Of a stretch of DNA of 64,000 nt, positions 39,927 to 49,706 are shown piece by piece. The DNA lies in assembly GCA_021808445.1 (NCBI GenBank), contig JAKBBP010000009.1:10277-74276 (forward strand). The letters run 5' to 3'. The notes below the pieces were generated by a model that was not told the origin of the DNA, ran no database searches, and worked only from the letters and a program-made list of their open reading frames with translations. Position numbers and translations under genes: made by a program. Each line of letters opens with the position of its first letter. Within the stretch, counting starts at the first letter, position 1. This stretch comes from Pseudomonadota bacterium (GTDB lineage Bacteria; Pseudomonadota; Gammaproteobacteria; Burkholderiales; Burkholderiaceae_C).

Positions 39927-41045
39927 TCAATCCGCGCCCGCGCCAAGCCCTTCCCCGGTCAGTAGACGGAAGAGTGGCTCGTTGATGTAGTAATTCGACC
40001 GTCCGATCTTGTGCTTGCGCACGAACCCGCCGGCCACGAGTTGGTCGAGATAGCTGGTCGCGGTGAGGCGGCTGACTCCGAGTTCGTGCTGGATGAATTC
40101 GATCTTCGTATAGGGGTGCGAGAACAGGTTGTTGATCAGGTCCTGGCTGTAGAAACGATACGCATCACGGATGCGGTGCTTGTAGTCCATCACCAGGGCG
40201 CGGATCGCCTTCACAGTCTCGATGGTTTCCATGGCCGTCTGCTCGACCGCCCGCAGCATGTACAGAACCCAGTCTTCCCACAGATCGTCGTCGCGCACCC
40301 CCTGCAGCAGGCGGTAGTAGTCGCCCTTGTTCCGCACGATGGCGCGGCTGAGGTACAGGACCGGGATGTCGAGCAGTCCCTGGCGCACGAGGTAGAGAAC
40401 GTTGATGATGCGGCCGGTGCGGCCGTTGCCGTCGTAGAAGGGGTGGATGGTTTCGAACTGGTGGTGGATCAACGCCATCTTGACCAACGGATCGGCCGGG
40501 TACATCGCGTCGTCGTTGATGAAGCGCTCGAGGTCGCCCATCAGCGCAGGCAGATGCTCCGGCGAAGGCGGCGTATAGACGACCCGACCCGCACCATCCT
40601 GCAAAGCCGTCCCGGTCATCTGGCGCAACCCCGCTCGGTTGCGCTCGAGTGCCTCCTGGATCTGCAGGATGTGGGCCAGGGTCAACAGCCCCCGCTGGCG
40701 TACCGCGTCGAAGCCGACGCGCAGCGCCTGGGCATAGCGCGAGACCTCCTTCGCTGCCTGTCCACCGCCTGCGCCGAAGTGTGCGACTTCGCGAAAGAGT
40801 TCGTCATGGGTCGTGACGATGTTCTCGACTTCGGAACTGTCCTTGGCCTCCTGCAGCACGAGCGTGTTGATCAGGATGCCCTGATTGGGCATGGACATGG
40901 CCACGCCCTTGAGTTCGGCCAATTGGCGATGCGAAGCGACCAGCTGCTTCAGGATCGCGGCAGTCTCGAATCGGGCCGGATCAAGGCCTTGCAACGGCAC
41001 CGGAAGACATGGCATGGAAGCAGGCGTAGGAGCTGCGATGTGCAT
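39927..41045 (-). CDS. Fic family AMPylase with C-terminal HTH
   Basis: HPFYDGNGRTGR; inhibitory motif SSEVEN; C-terminal VSRLTATSYLDQL. Confidence 0.92.
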   Translation of the reverse strand: MHIAAPTPASMPCLPVPLQGLDPARFETAAILKQLVASHRQLAELKGVAMSMPNQGILINTLVLQEAKDSSEVENIVTTHDELFREVAHFGAGGGQAAKEVSRYAQALRVGFDAVRQRGLLTLAHILQIQEALERNRAGLRQMTGTALQDGAGRVVYTPPSPEHLPALMGDLERFINDDAMYPADPLVKMALIHHQFETIHPFYDGNGRTGRIINVLYLVRQGLLDIPVLYLSRAIVRNKGDYYRLLQGVRDDDLWEDWVLYMLRAVEQTAMETIETVKAIRALVMDYKHRIRDAYRFYSQDLINNLFSHPYTKIEFIQHELGVSRLTATSYLDQLVAGGFVRKHKIGRSNYYINEPLFRLLTGEGLGAGAD

Positions 41046-44585: not shown

Positions 44586-45896
44586 TCAGGCCTGTCTCAG
44601 GCGATCCAGGCGTAAGGGCACGAAGCGCCGGCCGGGCTCACGCCCGGAGCCCCTCCGGCCCCCGATGGGGGCCTGGGTCGCGGCTCCCAGCAGGCCGGCG
44701 AGCCGCGCCACGCAAGGCTCCACGGCCCGCAGGGGCAGGCCGGCGAAACCCAGGCGCAGGGCATTGCGCACCGGCTCCGCGCCCGCGGGATCGTCGGCGA
44801 AGCGGCATTGGGCGCAGTCGCCGAAACTCACGCAGCCTCCGGCGCCGACGTCGAACAGGCGCCCGGGCAGCAGCGGCAGGCCCTCCCTGTCGACCTGCCC
44901 GAGCATCTCGGCGGCATCCAGGCCCTGGGGCAGGTTCAGCCAGACATGCGCGCCTCCCCGCGGCCGGGTCCAGGCGACGCCGTCGGGCATGTGGCGCCGC
45001 AAGGCATCGAGCAGAGCATCGCGGCGCTCGCGATAGCGCTTGCGCAAGCCGGGAAGCTGGCTTTGCACGAAGCCCTCGCGCAACATGTGCAGCAGCACCC
45101 ACTGGCTGAGGCTGCAGGCTTGCGGTTCGGCTGCGCGCTGCGCCTGGGCCAGCCTGGCGATCAGGCGGGGATGCCCGGCCACCCAGCCCAGGCGCAGGCC
45201 GGGGAACACGAGCGCGGAAAAGCTGCCCACGACCACGCCGTGCTCCACCCCCCGCGCCAGCAGGCCCGGCACGGGCGGCGTGTCGAACCAGAACTCGCCG
45301 TAGGTCTGGTCCTCGACCAGCCAGCACTGCGAGGCGGCGAGCTGGCGGGCCAGCTCGCGGGCGCGCGCCTCCCCGATGAGCTGCCCGGTGGGATCGTCGA
45401 AGCGTGGTTGCAGATAGGCCATGCGCGCTCCGGGCAGGGCATTGGCGAAGGCATCGGGCTCGGGGCCCTCCCGGTCGCAGCGCAGGCCGACCAGGCGCGG
45501 GCCGTAGGGGCGCAGCGCACGCAGTGCCCCCAGGCGTGTCGGGCGCTGTACCAGCACCGGGCTGGCGGGGTCGAGCAGCACCTTGCCCAGCAGGTCCAGC
45601 GCGTGGCGGGAGCCGGAGCTGATCAGGACCTGCGGGGGTTCCAGGCGCAGCCCCTGGGCCTCCAGGTGGGCACACACCCATTCGCGCAGGGGCTCGAGGC
45701 CCTCGCAGGGGCCGTATTGCAGGGCCTGGGGCGCGCGGCGCGACAGCACGCGGCGCATGGCCCGGTCCACGGCCGCGACGGGGAGGAGATCGAGGTCGCG
45801 GCCCTCGCCGCAGCCGAAGGGATCGTCCCGGCCTTCGCCGGTCTCGAGCAAGGTCGCGCGCTGCGCCATCGGGGGAAGGGTGGTGTACAGGGACAT
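44586..45896 (-). CDS. Class I aminotransferase-like protein lacking the PLP lysine
   Basis: QYGPCEG, VEDQTYGE, GSFSALVFPGLRLGW, LRLGF; no HTH. Confidence 0.8.
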   Translation of the reverse strand: MSLYTTLPPMAQRATLLETGEGRDDPFGCGEGRDLDLLPVAAVDRAMRRVLSRRAPQALQYGPCEGLEPLREWVCAHLEAQGLRLEPPQVLISSGSRHALDLLGKVLLDPASPVLVQRPTRLGALRALRPYGPRLVGLRCDREGPEPDAFANALPGARMAYLQPRFDDPTGQLIGEARARELARQLAASQCWLVEDQTYGEFWFDTPPVPGLLARGVEHGVVVGSFSALVFPGLRLGWVAGHPRLIARLAQAQRAAEPQACSLSQWVLLHMLREGFVQSQLPGLRKRYRERRDALLDALRRHMPDGVAWTRPRGGAHVWLNLPQGLDAAEMLGQVDREGLPLLPGRLFDVGAGGCVSFGDCAQCRFADDPAGAEPVRNALRLGFAGLPLRAVEPCVARLAGLLGAATQAPIGGRRGSGREPGRRFVPLRLDRLRQA

Positions 45897-46056
45897 GCGT
45901 AGCCTCCGGCTGGTGGCGGCCCCGCCTGCGGCCTGACGGGATACCCCGGGCCGCCGCGTGGTCACAAATTGACACACCTTCAGCCTAGACCGACACTGCC
46001 AGCCCCACCAGCACAGAGGCCGGCCCTTCGCCGTTTGCTGATCTGGTCGTTTCGCC

Positions 46057-47535
46057 ATGTCACACGCACACCCAGCCCCCCGGCCGCGCGAAGCCGAGGC
46101 ACAGGCCCTGCACCTGCGGCTCGCCCAGCGCCTGCGCGAGCAGATCCGCCAGCAAGGCACCCCACCCGGAACCCGGCTGGCCTCGGTGCGCGCATGCGCG
46201 CACGAGCACGGGGTGAACCCGCAGACCGTGGTCGCCGCCTACGATCTGCTGCAGGCCCAGGGCCTGGTCGAGGCCCGGGCGCGCCAGGGGTTTTTCGTGC
46301 GCGGCCCGGCCCACGGCGCCCCGGGAGCCGGGGCGGAGCCCGGCGGCGCGCCTGCAGCCCGCGAGCCGCGTGGCGCGAGGCAGTCGCGTCTCGCGCCGCC
46401 CACCCAGGCCATCGCCATGCTGCGCGCCGGGCTGGCAGGGGCCGAGCAGCCCAGCCCCGCGCGCTCCATGCCCGGCTGCGGGAGCCTGCCCGTCGAGTGG
46501 CTGCAGGCCTCCCCGCTGGCGCAGGCCTTGCGCAGGCTGCTGCGGGAAGGCGGCACCCTGCAGGCGGCGCAGGGCTACGGCTGCCCCGAGGGCGACCCGC
46601 GACTGCGCACGCAACTGGCCCGCCTGCTGGCCGAGCAGGAAATCGCCGTCCCGGCCTCGCAGCTCTTGCTGTGCAACGGCGCCACGCAGGCGCTGGACCT
46701 GGTCGCTCGCAGCCTGCTGCGCCCCGGAGACGCGGTGATGGTCGAACAGCCAGGCCCGCCGCTGGCCTTCCAGCAACTGGCGCGCCAGGGCCTGCGTCTG
46801 CTGCCGGTTGCGCGCGGCCAGCAGGGGCCCGATCTGTCCCGGGTCTCGCAGTGGGCACGCAACCGCAAGCCTCGCCTGATGGTGGTGGCCGCGCGCATGC
46901 ACAACCCCACGGGCGGCGACATCGCCACCGGCTGCGCGCATCAGTTGCTGGAGCTGGCGCGGGAGCACGACTTCCTGATCGCCGAGGACGATGGCTACGC
47001 GGCGCTGTGCGACCGCGGCCCGCCCCTGCTTTCGGCTATGGACGGACTGCGTCGCACGCTGCTGCTGGGAAGCCTGTCGCAGCTGCTGGCCCCCGGCTGG
47101 CGCGTGGGCTTCCTGGCCGCGCCAGCCGCGCTGGTGGAGCGGCTGCTGGAGACCAAGCTGCTCGCCGGCCTGGCCTCGCCGGCGCTCACCGAGCGCGCGC
47201 TTGCGCTGTTGTTCGAGCGAGGCTCGGTGCCGCGCCAGGCGGCCGCATTGCGCGAGCGCCTGGCGCGCGCACGCCGACAGGCGGTGCAGGCGGCGCGGCA
47301 GCGCGGCTGCCGTTTCGAGCTGCCGCCTCGCGGTCTGTTCGGCTGGGTGGACACCGGCGTCGACACCGAGCCTCTGGCCCTGCGCCTGCACGAAAGCGGC
47401 TGGCTGATCGCACCCGGGCGCCTGTTCGACCCGGAGGCCCGCCCCAGCACGCGCATGCGCCTGAACTTCGCCCACGCGCAGGACCCCGCCTTCTGGTGCG
47501 ACTACGCGCGCGCGCTTCGCGCATGCGCCGACTGA
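46057..47535 (+). CDS. MocR/GntR-family regulator lacking the PLP lysine
   Basis: HTH (LASVR..A.EHGVNPQTVVAAYDLLQAQG); HNPTG, EDDGY, GSLSQLLAPGWRVGF. Confidence 0.88.
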   Translation: MSHAHPAPRPREAEAQALHLRLAQRLREQIRQQGTPPGTRLASVRACAHEHGVNPQTVVAAYDLLQAQGLVEARARQGFFVRGPAHGAPGAGAEPGGAPAAREPRGARQSRLAPPTQAIAMLRAGLAGAEQPSPARSMPGCGSLPVEWLQASPLAQALRRLLREGGTLQAAQGYGCPEGDPRLRTQLARLLAEQEIAVPASQLLLCNGATQALDLVARSLLRPGDAVMVEQPGPPLAFQQLARQGLRLLPVARGQQGPDLSRVSQWARNRKPRLMVVAARMHNPTGGDIATGCAHQLLELAREHDFLIAEDDGYAALCDRGPPLLSAMDGLRRTLLLGSLSQLLAPGWRVGFLAAPAALVERLLETKLLAGLASPALTERALALLFERGSVPRQAAALRERLARARRQAVQAARQRGCRFELPPRGLFGWVDTGVDTEPLALRLHESGWLIAPGRLFDPEARPSTRMRLNFAHAQDPAFWCDYARALRACAD

Positions 47536-47637: not shown

Positions 47638-47820
47638 ATGCAATCGGCGTGGACCAGCTTGCTCACCACCGATTACGGGTGGATGACCGTGGCCGTATTC
47701 GTGTTCATGCTCGGCATGGGCGTGTTTTTCGTCCTGTTCTTCCGGCGCAGGATTCGCGACGAGGAAGCGGGAGCGCGCGCCAGGAACTCCGAGGCCTTGA
47801 AACAACACCGCCCGGGCTGA
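47638..47820 (+). CDS. DUF3149-like small membrane protein
   Basis: LLTTDYGWMTVAVFVFMLGMGVFF; AGGAG RBS. Confidence 0.75.
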   Translation: MQSAWTSLLTTDYGWMTVAVFVFMLGMGVFFVLFFRRRIRDEEAGARARNSEALKQHRPG

Positions 47821-47867
47821 GCCGGGCGGCGAGAATCGGACGGCGAGAATCGGGCGGTCGGGGGAAC

Positions 47868-48143
47868 TCAGGCCGCTCGAGGGCCCTGCGAGGAGGCTTC
47901 GGCCACCCAGCGCTCGCCCATGACCGAGCCCAGGTAGTCGACCAGCAGCGGATGCTGCTGCATGGGCACGTCGGTCTCGACCGCGTAGATGGCGATGCCG
48001 TACTCGCCATGCCGGCGTGCATGCTCGCTGCGCGCCAGGCCCTGCACGGACTCCAGGCTGCCCACGGCGACCACGTAACTGTGACGCTCGGGTTCCCCAT
48101 GCTCGAAGGCCTGGGCCAGGTAGAGATCTCGCGTCGCGTTCAT
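47868..48143 (-). CDS. Hypothetical protein (91 aa)
   Basis: GGAG RBS; balanced amino-acid composition unlike shadow ORFs. Confidence 0.6.
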   Translation of the reverse strand: MNATRDLYLAQAFEHGEPERHSYVVAVGSLESVQGLARSEHARRHGEYGIAIYAVETDVPMQQHPLLVDYLGSVMGERWVAEASSQGPRAA

Positions 48144-48171
48144 GTCGCTCTCCAGGGTCGGGGCACGCAGC

Positions 48172-48199
48172 CCGCTCGCGGGCCGCGGCCCGCGAGCGG
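48172..48199. terminator. Long GC hairpin after cyc2-like gene
   Basis: CCGCTCGCGGGCC-gc-GGCCCGCGAGCGG. Confidence 0.5.
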
Positions 48200-48215
48200 C
48201 TTCAGATGACCGTCT

Positions 48216-49706
48216 TCAGATGGCCGTCCACAGGTACACGTACAGACTGTTGTTGGCACTGGCCCCTTGCGCGGAACCGGCGAACTTGTTGTAGGTCGTG
48301 TACTGCACCCCCACGCGAAGGTTCTTCTCCGGATCCACCCAGCTCTTGCCGAAGGGGTTCCAGTCCAGCTCCCAGGTCACGCCCGAAGTCTGCGGGCTGG
48401 AGGCGGGGTTGTAAAGGTAGGGGTCGTTGCTTCCCGTGGTGTTGAAGAACTGGATGGTCGCGCCATAGGTGTTCTGGTACCAGTAGGCCGCGTTCACGTT
48501 CATCGCGTTGAGCGTGTCACTGGAGTTCGACGTCGCCCCGGTCAGGTAGCTCTGCGTGAAACTCTGGCGCTCGTGGATGTACAGGCCGTTGACCGACCAG
48601 ATCCCGTTTTCACCAAAGTACTGGTAGCTGGCGTCCAGACCGATGTCGCGGTAGGTCTCGTCGGGCCCGTTGCCGGCCAGGGTGGGATCGAGGTTGTCGG
48701 CCACCTGGGAGTTCGGGTTCTGCGGGTTCAGCTTGGTCTGCATTCCCAGCACGCCGAACTCATAGTTGTTCGCGCCGATGGTGTTGGAGTAATTGAAGCG
48801 CAAGTAAGGGGCATAGCCCGAGACCACCCCGCCGCCGGCGCTCAGATCCGCGTTGGCCCCACCGGCGCTGTTGATCGGGTCGGCCGGGCCGCCAGCGTGC
48901 AGCTGGTTACCCCACCAGTTGGACATCTGGTGATACAGACCCAGCTCTGCGTACCAGTGGTTGTCCACCAGGGTGTAGAAGGATGCGCCGATCACGTGTT
49001 CGCCCAGGTCCTCGATGACCGGGGTCTGGCCATAGCCCGAGCCGAAGGGGCTGGTCATGAAGCCGAACTGCCAGGCCGGCACGGTGTTCCATACGTCGGA
49101 CACGGTCGGGTTGTTGTTCAGCGACACCCCGAAGATGCCGGTGGTGGACCCGATCTTGTAGGTGTTGGCGAAACGCAGGTCGGAGTTGTCCCAGGCGAGG
49201 TTCTGCGAACCCGGATCCGAGTAGGTGGCCTGGGCCAGTACGCCCACATGGTCGCTCAGGCGGCCCGCCAGGAACACGGAGGCCTGTTGCAGCGCGGTGA
49301 CGTTGTCGTTGGCGTTGAAGCCGACCGGCGGGGCGCTGTTGTCGCCGGTGGTGTGGGTGTAGGAAGCCACCAGCATCGCCGACAGGGGAATGTCATGCTT
49401 GGCGCTGCCGCCCTTCAGGGTGTAGCCCCCGAGCTTGAAGGCCCGGCCGAAGGGCGTGAGCTGCGGGCCGAAGCCCCCGACGTGGCAGGCCACGCAATCC
49501 TGTCCGGTCTGGCGTGCGAAGGCGGGGACCGCATGGGCTGGCGAGGCCGTCAGGCCGATGAAGGCCAGGACGCCCAGCCCCTGCAGCAGGCCGCGCGCGC
49601 GGGCCAGTGAGCGGGCCAGCGGGCGAGCGCAAGAGCGATGGTCGGATGGGTCGAGCGGTCCGCCGTTCGACGGCCGCCGGAAGGCAGGTGCGAGTCTGTT
49701 TGTCAT
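48216..49706 (-). CDS. cyc2: Cyc2-like cytochrome c-porin fusion
   Basis: Signal peptide then VPAFARQTGQDCVACH...PQLTPFGRAFKLGGY; single CxxCH; beta-barrel C-terminus LYVYLWTAI. Confidence 0.85.
   Translation of the reverse strand: MTNRLAPAFRRPSNGGPLDPSDHRSCARPLARSLARARGLLQGLGVLAFIGLTASPAHAVPAFARQTGQDCVACHVGGFGPQLTPFGRAFKLGGYTLKGGSAKHDIPLSAMLVASYTHTTGDNSAPPVGFNANDNVTALQQASVFLAGRLSDHVGVLAQATYSDPGSQNLAWDNSDLRFANTYKIGSTTGIFGVSLNNNPTVSDVWNTVPAWQFGFMTSPFGSGYGQTPVIEDLGEHVIGASFYTLVDNHWYAELGLYHQMSNWWGNQLHAGGPADPINSAGGANADLSAGGGVVSGYAPYLRFNYSNTIGANNYEFGVLGMQTKLNPQNPNSQVADNLDPTLAGNGPDETYRDIGLDASYQYFGENGIWSVNGLYIHERQSFTQSYLTGATSNSSDTLNAMNVNAAYWYQNTYGATIQFFNTTGSNDPYLYNPASSPQTSGVTWELDWNPFGKSWVDPEKNLRVGVQYTTYNKFAGSAQGASANNSLYVYLWTAI

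Follow-up and report, generated by a model that had tools for sequence, protein, structure and literature searches.

In the 64,000-nucleotide stretch of DNA analyzed here (the window), an aminotransferase-like protein and a divergently encoded MocR-type regulator both lack the lysine that forms the Schiff base with pyridoxal 5'-phosphate (PLP). Lysine loss in both proteins is far from chance, and both genes are under purifying selection across related species; because selection has been maintained in several of those species, the pair has most likely taken on a new role and is not simply broken. We lean toward the explanation that the aminotransferase-like protein has lost transaminase activity and is retained for a role tied to its cysteine loop, that the regulator acts independently of a Schiff base, and that the aminotransferase-like gene is the regulator's target.

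The gene pair and its reading frames

The window sequence contains two intact open reading frames (ORFs) in divergent orientation (Table 1), as the original prediction had stated for both genes. The aminotransferase-like gene likely starts at the ATG at position 45896, which is preceded by a GGAGG ribosome-binding site, and the resulting length of 436 aa matches the gene-caller calls for orthologues in four relatives. A 524-aa ORF starting at 46160 was rejected as the coding sequence of this gene on both of these grounds.

Table 1. Features of the divergent gene pair and its surroundings, by position in the window.
Feature	Positions	Strand	Remarks
Aminotransferase-like gene	44586..45896	-	436 aa plus stop; LysN/KAT-II-type class I fold, PLP site dismantled
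Arg/Pro-rich C-terminal tail, aa 409-436	44589..44672	-	Predicted disordered; conserved end ...R[LM][RS][QP]A
22-residue insertion, aa 353-374, GGCVSFGDCAQCRFADDPAGAE	44775..44840	-	Clade-specific; just before the carboxylate-binding Arg381
Ala228 codon GCG	45213..45215	-	Schiff-base Lys column of the aminotransferase-like protein
Divergent control region	45897..46056	.	160 bp; conserved core 45960-46019
MocR-type regulator gene	46057..47535	+	492 aa plus stop; GntR winged helix, linker, aminotransferase-like domain
GntR-type wHTH DNA-binding head	46117..46299	+	Pfam GntR match
Pro234	46756..46758	+	Stands where Lys-keeping orthologues have a ring-stacking Trp
Gln342 codon CAG	47080..47082	+	Schiff-base Lys column of the regulator
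DUF3149 membrane-peptide ORF, 60 aa	47638..47820	+	100 bp downstream of the regulator, same strand

Fold and cofactor site of the aminotransferase-like protein

Pfam assigned the aminotransferase-like protein to Aminotran_1_2 (PF00155; E = 2e-23), and HMMER matched it to LysN (PDB 2egy; E = 1.7e-58). The AlphaFold2 (AF2) model has a pLDDT of 82, and its best Foldseek match is also LysN (TM 0.78-0.87); the group of LysN, kynurenine aminotransferase II and PH0207 (PDB 2egy, 1x0m and 3aov) thus provides the best sequence and fold matches, at TM ~0.8. In the HMMER alignments, GSFS-A-LVFPGLR of the aminotransferase-like protein and GSLS-Q-LLAPGWR of the regulator fall over LGSFS-K-VLSPGLR of 2egy, with Ala228 and Gln342 in the lysine column, which bears out the original prediction that both proteins lack this residue. 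A direct BLASTP alignment of the two proteins (28% identity) also pairs A228 with Q342.

As in the LysN group, the aminotransferase-like protein retains the PLP ligands Asp196, Tyr199, Ser225/Ser227 and Arg235, as well as Arg381. The DxxY and arginine residues that the original prediction had described as kept were found in both proteins (D196/Y199 and R235/R381 in the aminotransferase-like protein; D311/Y314 and R349/R468 in the regulator), as was a cysteine in the YG..EG segment (C64 and C176, respectively). Unlike the LysN group, the protein has lost not only the lysine but also the ring-stacking Tyr (now R121), the Asn (now D168), the GSQQ loop (now GSRH) and, by deletion, the N-terminal GGLP lid, and it has gained a CX5CX2C loop and a C-terminal tail. 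It therefore has the fold and family of a competent aminotransferase and lacks the Schiff-base lysine and the full set of PLP ligands. Because several ligands beyond the lysine are gone, sensing of PMP or of a PLP adduct by this protein, which had been among the suggestions of the original prediction, appears unlikely.

No substitute lysine was found in either protein. Of the only two lysines in the aminotransferase-like protein, K105 is conserved throughout the family and K286 is not conserved (it is Ala in the orthologue P0001); the regulator likewise contains two lysines only, and the lysine-less lineage shares no gain of one. Judged from sequence positions, K105, K286 and both regulator lysines would lie outside the pocket.

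The MocR regulator

Pfam identified a GntR domain (PF00392) at residues 21-81 of the regulator and an Aminotran_1_2 domain (PF00155) at residues 165-473, and NCBIfam ranks the PdxR, YczR, EhuR and MocR models highest, none of which reaches its equivalog cut-off. The protein thus shares with the MocR/GabR subfamily (GabR, PdxR, EnuR/EhuR, PtsJ and TauR) the arrangement of a GntR winged helix, a linker and a fold-type I aminotransferase-like domain in one chain. Like members of that subfamily, it is transcribed divergently from an aminotransferase gene, and the ancestral form of its regulon is of a catalogued type, that of MocR regulons with a DMT transporter, an aminotransferase and PhzF (PMC5320631). 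Unlike them, it lacks the Schiff-base lysine, with Gln in place of Lys and Pro in place of the ring-stacking aromatic residue, both fixed in seven species.

The DNA-binding head is nearly invariant over 10 orthologues (SVRxCAxxxxVxPQTVVAAYDxLQAxG). Within the branch in which the aminotransferase-like protein carries Ala, Thr or Pro in its lysine column (the A/T/P branch), Gln342 is fixed in all seven species, encoded by CAG in five and by CAA in two; elsewhere the column holds Arg in the P0006 lineage and Lys (AAG) in all other orthologues. The regulator glutamine has thus been held through synonymous change, whereas the corresponding column of the aminotransferase-like protein drifts among Ala, Thr and Pro. 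Further pocket residues are fixed in the Gln clade alongside Q342, namely C141, S143, P234, A237 and A309.

Characterized members of the MocR/GabR subfamily require the Schiff-base lysine. The regulator of the window most likely functions independently of a PLP Schiff base, with the caveat that the lysine is chemically dispensable if a regulator takes up a PLP-amine adduct formed beforehand.

Rarity of lysine loss

The lysine is missing from none of ~100 homologues outside the clade that carries the insertion, and from one of the 148 nearest 50%-cluster representatives (P0234, a protein of MocR length with Ser in the column). In the same genome, it has been retained by both further MocR paralogues and by all four class I aminotransferases. 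In EnuR, the lysine is present in 278 of 278 sequences, and a Lys302His variant is PLP-free, still dimerizes and acts as a constitutive repressor (PMC8739950). We found no naturally lysine-less MocR regulator in the open literature searched, outside which an earlier mention may exist, and our literature search found nothing relevant on GabR K312A.

Inheritance of the locus and order of the losses

The locus is syntenic throughout the GTDB genus of Thiomonas delicata, and it is orthologous and vertically inherited in this Thiomonas-type genus. In the ancestral layout, the MocR gene diverges from a series encoding an EamA transporter, a LysN-like aminotransferase with the lysine and a PhzF-like isomerase. 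The divergent aminotransferase-like gene is conserved at all orthologous loci; EamA and PhzF were lost in a derived clade of 13 species, and no homologue of either is left in the window's genome.

Trees indicate that the insertion was gained once (clade support 100/100). The lysine was lost from the aminotransferase-like protein at least twice, giving rise to Ala, Thr or Pro in one branch and to Arg or Asp in another (the R/D branch). Counted by species, its column holds Ala (GCG) in four, Thr (ACC) in two, Pro (CCC) in one, Lys (AAG) in three (plus P0006), Arg (CGC) in two (plus P0009, P0010 and P0012) and Asp (GAT) in one; that of the regulator holds Gln in seven, Arg in one and Lys in the rest.

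The original prediction had taken the parallel loss as the sign of a repurposed pair. The coupling between the two losses, however, is not strict. The aminotransferase-like protein of the R/D branch has lost its lysine, and additionally the DxxY Tyr and the phosphate-binding Arg, whereas the regulator of that branch keeps its lysine. In the P0006 lineage, the regulator carries Arg while the aminotransferase-like protein still has Lys, despite which its stacking Tyr, Asn and DxxY Tyr are already gone. Only in the window's branch has the regulator lost the Schiff-base lysine and the ring-stacking Trp in addition to the changes in its neighbor. The notion of repurposing itself stood up better, given the intact frames, the selection estimates below and the clade-fixed replacement residues that occupy the old cofactor pockets of both proteins and fit such a change of role.

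Selection

Frames are intact in all 10 lysine-less species representatives, and no orthologue contains a stop codon. Among lysine-less pairs, pairwise dN/dS is 0.20-0.32 for the aminotransferase-like gene and 0.17-0.28 for the regulator, with all bootstrap 95% intervals below 0.42 and thus excluding 1; lysine-keeping pairs at similar dS give 0.18-0.23. The original prediction had proposed this comparison as a check for decay, and relatives outside the clade do keep the lysine, but the dN/dS values are well below 1. We therefore rejected decay to pseudogenes. Constraint on the aminotransferase-like gene is nevertheless moderate, since it evolves faster than its housekeeping neighbors (82-86% versus 92-98% identity; dN/dS of 0.2-0.3 versus 0.03-0.13).

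It is very improbable that both genes are functionless relics decaying slowly after the loss of EamA and PhzF: although these pathway partners are gone, catalytic residues have been lost repeatedly and the aminotransferase-like gene outpaces its neighbors, dN/dS matches that of lysine-keeping relatives, and invariance has been maintained in the inserted loop as well as in the DNA-binding head and Gln342 of the regulator.

Cysteine loop and C-terminal tail

The inserted CVSFGDCAQC reported by the original prediction is present in the aminotransferase-like protein, and the insertion holds three invariant cysteines, C355, C361 and C364 (CX5CX2C). It is missing from the sister clade and from every other homologue compared. 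The loop is more conserved than the average of the protein, with 11 of 26 positions invariant in region 351-376 versus 119 of 436 overall (16 sequences). AF2 confidence at the insertion is low (pLDDT ~57), and the loop sequence by itself, queried against Pfam in three clade variants at E values up to 10, gave no match. A further cysteine, C191, is also invariant in the clade, yet it occurs in unrelated homologues too. The loop is older than the lysine loss, as it is also found in L133-L135, members of the clade with a complete PLP site. The C-terminal tail is restricted to the insertion clade, and its residues 412-436 have pLDDT <50 in the AF2 model.

FNR- and WhiB-type sensory [4Fe-4S] motifs consist of CX2CX5C and a distant cysteine. 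The aminotransferase-like protein has this spacing in reverse, with the fourth invariant cysteine (C191) elsewhere, a likeness that might serve as a lead; however, it shares neither fold nor sequence similarity with FNR or WhiB, and any cluster in it is putative. The three invariant cysteines hint faintly at metal or redox sensing, and the loop could also bind Zn for structural purposes or form a disulfide, without any part in sensing.

Proposed function and alternative explanations

Under the explanation toward which we lean, the aminotransferase-like protein would have lost transamination and probably no longer holds PLP, and it would be retained for a non-catalytic or different function with the cysteine loop as its key feature. 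Most plausibly, this loop would bind a metal or an iron-sulfur cluster, being placed on the small domain beside the entrance of the old active site. The regulator, through its unchanged DNA-binding head, would still bind the conserved divergent control region, and the aminotransferase-like gene would be its target. Since the regulator is unable to form an internal aldimine, it should either be effector-blind and constitutive, by analogy with the EnuR Lys302His mutant, or sense a non-covalently bound ligand in a rebuilt, enlarged pocket. The fixation of Gln342 favors the second option.

It is also conceivable, if improbable, that the aminotransferase-like protein has remained an enzyme, one of the lysine-less E1/SpnQ type, with non-covalent PMP and a cluster on the cysteine loop. 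E1 (CDP-6-deoxy-L-threo-D-glycero-4-hexulose-3-dehydrase) and SpnQ offer a precedent, as they have an aminotransferase fold in which the lysine is replaced and a [2Fe-2S] cluster sits on four cysteines around PMP (PMC8987622). ColD, too, has this fold without the Schiff-base lysine. E1 and SpnQ added cysteine ligands for a cluster near the cofactor, and in the window's protein C355, C361, C364 and C191 are clade-invariant, the cluster itself being putative. Because L133-L135 unite the cysteine loop with a complete PLP site, an enzyme with both PLP and a metal probably existed, and the PLP ligands and Arg381 that the window's protein still keeps would suit such a descent. However, E1 and ColD keep a conserved catalytic His in the lysine position (PMC8987622), whereas the column of the aminotransferase-like protein offers no conserved catalytic base (Ala, Thr, Pro, Arg or Asp, never His). 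E1, SpnQ and ColD are DegT/DnrJ/EryC1 proteins that retain their PMP ligands, whereas the window's protein belongs to the LysN group of PF00155, outside the E1 family, and has lost further cofactor ligands: the stacking Tyr, Asn, GSQQ loop and GGLP lid in the window's branch, and the DxxY Tyr and phosphate-binding Arg in the R/D branch.

An equally speculative possibility is that the aminotransferase fold has been turned into an iron-sulfur or metal sensor, with CX5CX2C beside a rebuilt basic pocket, and that it works with the Schiff-base-independent MocR regulator through contact or a common new ligand. We regard this combination as a long shot. If true, it would constitute a new redox- or iron-responsive switch in Cyc2-carrying, probably iron-oxidizing relatives of Thiomonas.

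Slightly more doubtful still is the proposal of the original prediction, in which the aminotransferase-like protein is an anti-regulator or co-sensor that acts on the aminotransferase-like domain of MocR, as a heterodimer or complex, and relays a metal or redox signal. Both proteins have the same dimer-forming fold, the divergent pair is conserved in 13 of 13 species, in the window's branch both pockets were remodeled and have since stayed fixed, and the conserved C-terminal tail, disordered in the model, could be an interaction peptide. At 28% identity, however, the two are ancient paralogues rather than products of a recent duplication, their lysine losses are uncoupled in other branches, and MocR regulators usually target a divergently transcribed aminotransferase gene, for which physical interaction is unnecessary (PMC5320631). 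For the same low identity, and because it is closer to LysN, we rejected an origin of the aminotransferase-like gene as a recent duplicate of the regulator's sensor domain.

On the current view, MocR regulators depend on a strictly conserved lysine that carries PLP as a Schiff base, and a natural lineage with a Gln-fixed regulator under purifying selection and a rebuilt pocket raises the question of how such a regulator senses. The aminotransferase-like gene is a clear case of an enzyme fold that persisted although its cofactor site was taken apart in two independent events, with a new three-cysteine loop held invariant. The scope is narrow, one genus-level clade of ~13 species; within it, the genus provides a natural series of intermediates, comprising PLP plus the loop, a dead enzyme only, a lysine-less regulator only, and both. 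Since all of these states are represented and cultured relatives carry the ancestral operon (Thiomonas delicata DSM 16361), the order of pseudoenzyme evolution can be reconstructed and tested.

Control region and neighboring genes

An alignment of nine orthologous intergenic regions identified blocks conserved in both lysine-keeping and lysine-less lineages. Within the conserved core, a TTGACA at 45969-45974 faces the regulator, and two GTGTC-type elements approximately two helical turns apart may be candidate MocR boxes. Because a consensus sigma-70 promoter scan of the control region returned nothing significant and a repeat search found no clear repeat in it, we only infer the promoter and operator assignments.

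A Cyc2-like gene is adjacent to the locus, which we take as no more than co-occurrence in the one clade. Downstream of the regulator, the DUF3149 ORF is probably co-transcribed with it, and the same arrangement is found in L001, L003, L010, L012 and L015. A terminator-like hairpin is located at 47806-47831.

Loss of PLP-site residues in the divergent pair

We used HMMER to align both window proteins to T. thermophilus LysN (2egy); the enzyme-like protein reads GSFS-A-LVFPGLR and the regulator GSLS-Q-LLAPGWR over LGSFS-K-VLSPGLR. Direct BLASTP of the two proteins (28% aa identity) paired A228 of the enzyme-like protein with Q342 of the regulator. Along with the codons, these alignments bear out the original prediction that Ala and Gln replace the PLP lysine; the retained DxxY motif, both Arg residues, the Cys of the YG..EG segments, and the CVSFGDCAQC stretch are also as it described. 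Losses at the PLP site exceed those described there: the enzyme-like protein has Arg in place of the ring-stacking Tyr, Asp in place of Asn, and GSRH in place of GSQQ, and has lost the N-terminal GGLP lid by deletion, and the regulator has Pro at the stacking Trp position of Lys-keeping orthologues. Each protein contains two lysines. Comparison with orthologues identified no gain among them common to the Lys-less lineage, the enzyme-like protein's K286 varies (Ala in homologue P0001), and, judged by sequence position, none of these lysines would lie in the pocket, which argues against substitution by a nearby lysine.

Features of the locus in the window
Feature	Position	Strand	Basis or detail
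Aminotransferase-fold gene, longest ORF	44586-46160	-	ORF reading
Enzyme-like gene, likely start ATG 45896, 436 aa	44586-45896	-	GGAGG ahead of ATG; length as in relatives
MocR-type regulator, 492 aa	46057-47535	+	GntR residues 21-81, Aminotran_1_2 165-473
Lys-column codon, enzyme-like gene: GCG	45213-45215	-	codon reading
Lys-column codon, regulator: CAG	47080-47082	+	codon reading
C-terminal tail of enzyme-like protein	44589-44672	-	conserved end
DUF3149 membrane-peptide ORF, 60 aa	47638-47820	+	100 bp 3' of MocR gene
Cyc2-like porin-cytochrome gene and 91-aa ORF	47868-49706	-	between trx2 and MocR gene
Fic-motif protein (HPFYDGNGRTGR)	39927-41045	-	after lipA

The start of the enzyme-like gene is likely because GGAGG precedes it and the resulting length is that assigned by gene callers in four relatives; the two genes are 160 bp apart. 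AlphaFold2 modeled the enzyme-like protein from a 34-sequence alignment (pLDDT 82, pTM 0.82), with low confidence at the N-terminus (residues 1-33), in the Cys loop (~57), and in the tail (412-436), and the top Foldseek matches to this model were LysN chains (TM ~0.8). By fold, the enzyme-like protein is a member of the LysN group, but it fails the catalytic hallmarks of that group; by architecture, the regulator is a MocR-family member, but it fails the mechanistic hallmark of that family.

Evolution of the pair within the clade

GTDB places the window's genome in the same genus as Thiomonas delicata DSM 16361. T. delicata (contig L020, which contains locus L098 of genome G047) and five other species have the arrangement MocR <-> EamA-aminotransferase(Lys)-PhzF, and regulons of this type are on record for MocR factors (PMC5320631). 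All relatives examined share the locus in synteny, with trx2/CMD/SDR/lptC on one flank and SWIB/tlpA-like/lipB/lipA on the opposite flank. A derived clade of 13 species representatives and metagenomic variants (support 100/100) lacks EamA and PhzF at the locus, and a genome-wide search identified neither in the window's genome.

The aminotransferase of this clade has a C-terminal tail and, immediately ahead of the carboxylate-binding Arg, a 22-residue insertion (GGCxxFGxCxxCR[FY]...). Three loop cysteines (C355, C361, and C364) and C191 are invariant in 16/16 sequences, and invariant positions make up 11/26 of the loop vs. 119/436 of the whole protein. The loop matches no Pfam family and is absent from all other homologues among the nearest 50%-identity cluster representatives. 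The tail ends in ...R[LM][RS][QP]A in the window's branch and in homologue P0006, and in ...VSHA or ...SRA in other branches; the conserved end might serve as a tag for recognition or degradation.

Within the clade, one branch (L133-L135) retains the lysine and a complete set of PLP ligands. The P0006 lineage also retains the lysine but no longer has the stacking Tyr, the Asn, or the DxxY Tyr; its sister, seven species including the window's, has Ala (four), Thr (two), or Pro (one), with other ligands as in the window. A separate branch (L136, L137, P0009, P0010, P0012, and L147) has Arg or Asp and has also lost the DxxY Tyr and phosphate Arg. These states indicate that the PLP site of the enzyme-like protein was dismantled at least twice and that the old Lys column then drifted. 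One MAG (G167) carries two enzyme-like copies with a partner regulator, of the Arg and Asp types (L137 and L147); these may come from a mixed bin and not from a duplication, since contamination of G167 is listed as 6%.

Among the regulators, Gln is confined to the seven Ala/Thr/Pro species, all of which have it; the P0006 lineage has Arg, and all other orthologues, including partners of the Arg/Asp enzyme-like proteins, have Lys. Loss in the two genes is parallel in the window's branch, but the coupling is not obligatory.

Among 120 homologues from a search of 5.8 billion proteins, all Lys-less sequences fall within the query's own clade. The nearest 149 cluster representatives (50% identity, of 1.84 billion) comprise 147 with Lys, one fragment, and one with Ser; the last, P0234, is a MocR-length protein (499 aa) from an unrelated cluster and the only further one to lack Lys among the nearest 148 representatives. 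Within the window's genome, the lysine is retained in both of the other MocR paralogues and in four class I aminotransferases. A search of the open literature turned up no account of MocR regulators that naturally lack the lysine. The finding is confined to one genus-level clade, which provides a clean natural series suited to experimental work.

Selection on the Lys-less genes

Based on pairwise NG86 estimates with bootstrap 95% intervals, on a 75% G+C background, dN/dS between Lys-less pairs was 0.20-0.32 for the enzyme-like gene and 0.17-0.28 for the regulator, with upper limits never >0.41; Lys-keeping pairs at similar dS gave 0.18-0.23, and housekeeping neighbours evolve slower (0.03-0.13). 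The regulator keeps Gln despite synonymous codon change (CAG in five species and CAA in the other two), whereas codons in the old Lys column of the enzyme-like gene are GCG, ACC, or CCC. Pocket replacements that are invariant in the branch and that no Lys-keeping relative has are C141, S143, P234, A237, A309, and Q342 in the regulator and include R97, H98, R126, D168, Q197, S264, and H317 in the enzyme-like protein. This is the pattern of repurposing, as originally predicted, and not of decay, which we reject because dN/dS is far below 1 and similar to that of Lys-keeping pairs, and because Gln and the pocket residues are held.

Possible functions

The enzyme-like protein has most likely lost transamination, and probably PLP binding too; selection would have preserved the fold together with a rebuilt basic pocket and the three-Cys loop that lies next to the former entrance of the active site, most simply read as a metal or Fe-S site. 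The winged helix of the regulator hardly varies across all orthologues, and intergenic blocks are conserved in Lys-keeping and Lys-less lineages alike. The regulator would still bind the shared control region, with its putative promoters and operators, without the capacity for an internal aldimine, and the enzyme-like gene would most simply be its target. The regulator may be effector-blind, by analogy with EnuR Lys302His, a PLP-free, still dimeric constitutive repressor (PMC8739950), or may use an enlarged pocket to sense a ligand non-covalently, an option favoured by the fixed Gln and the further pocket changes that are fixed.

The originally proposed heterodimer or anti-regulator may exist but gained no support; the proteins' identity of 28% and the uncoupled Lys losses elsewhere in the clade count against it. 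A Lys-less PMP-plus-Fe-S enzyme resembling E1 or SpnQ is possible among loop-bearing members with intact PLP sites (PMC8987622), but is unlikely for the window's protein, because no catalytic base replaces the lysine and further cofactor ligands are gone.

Other features of the locus

The DUF3149 ORF, on the same strand as the MocR gene, is probably in the regulator's transcription unit, and this arrangement is kept in Lys-keeping (L015) and Lys-less loci. The Cyc2-like gene and the 91-aa ORF occur in loop-clade loci L001, L003, L008, L010, and L016 and not in L006, L013, or L015; the link to the clade is one of co-occurrence only. In L001, a close relative, a cupin gene takes the place of the Fic-motif protein. 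In loci L018 (1935-3461) and L134, the reading frame that is open ahead of the enzyme-like gene contains a (PHPPHP)n repeat before the conserved start region.
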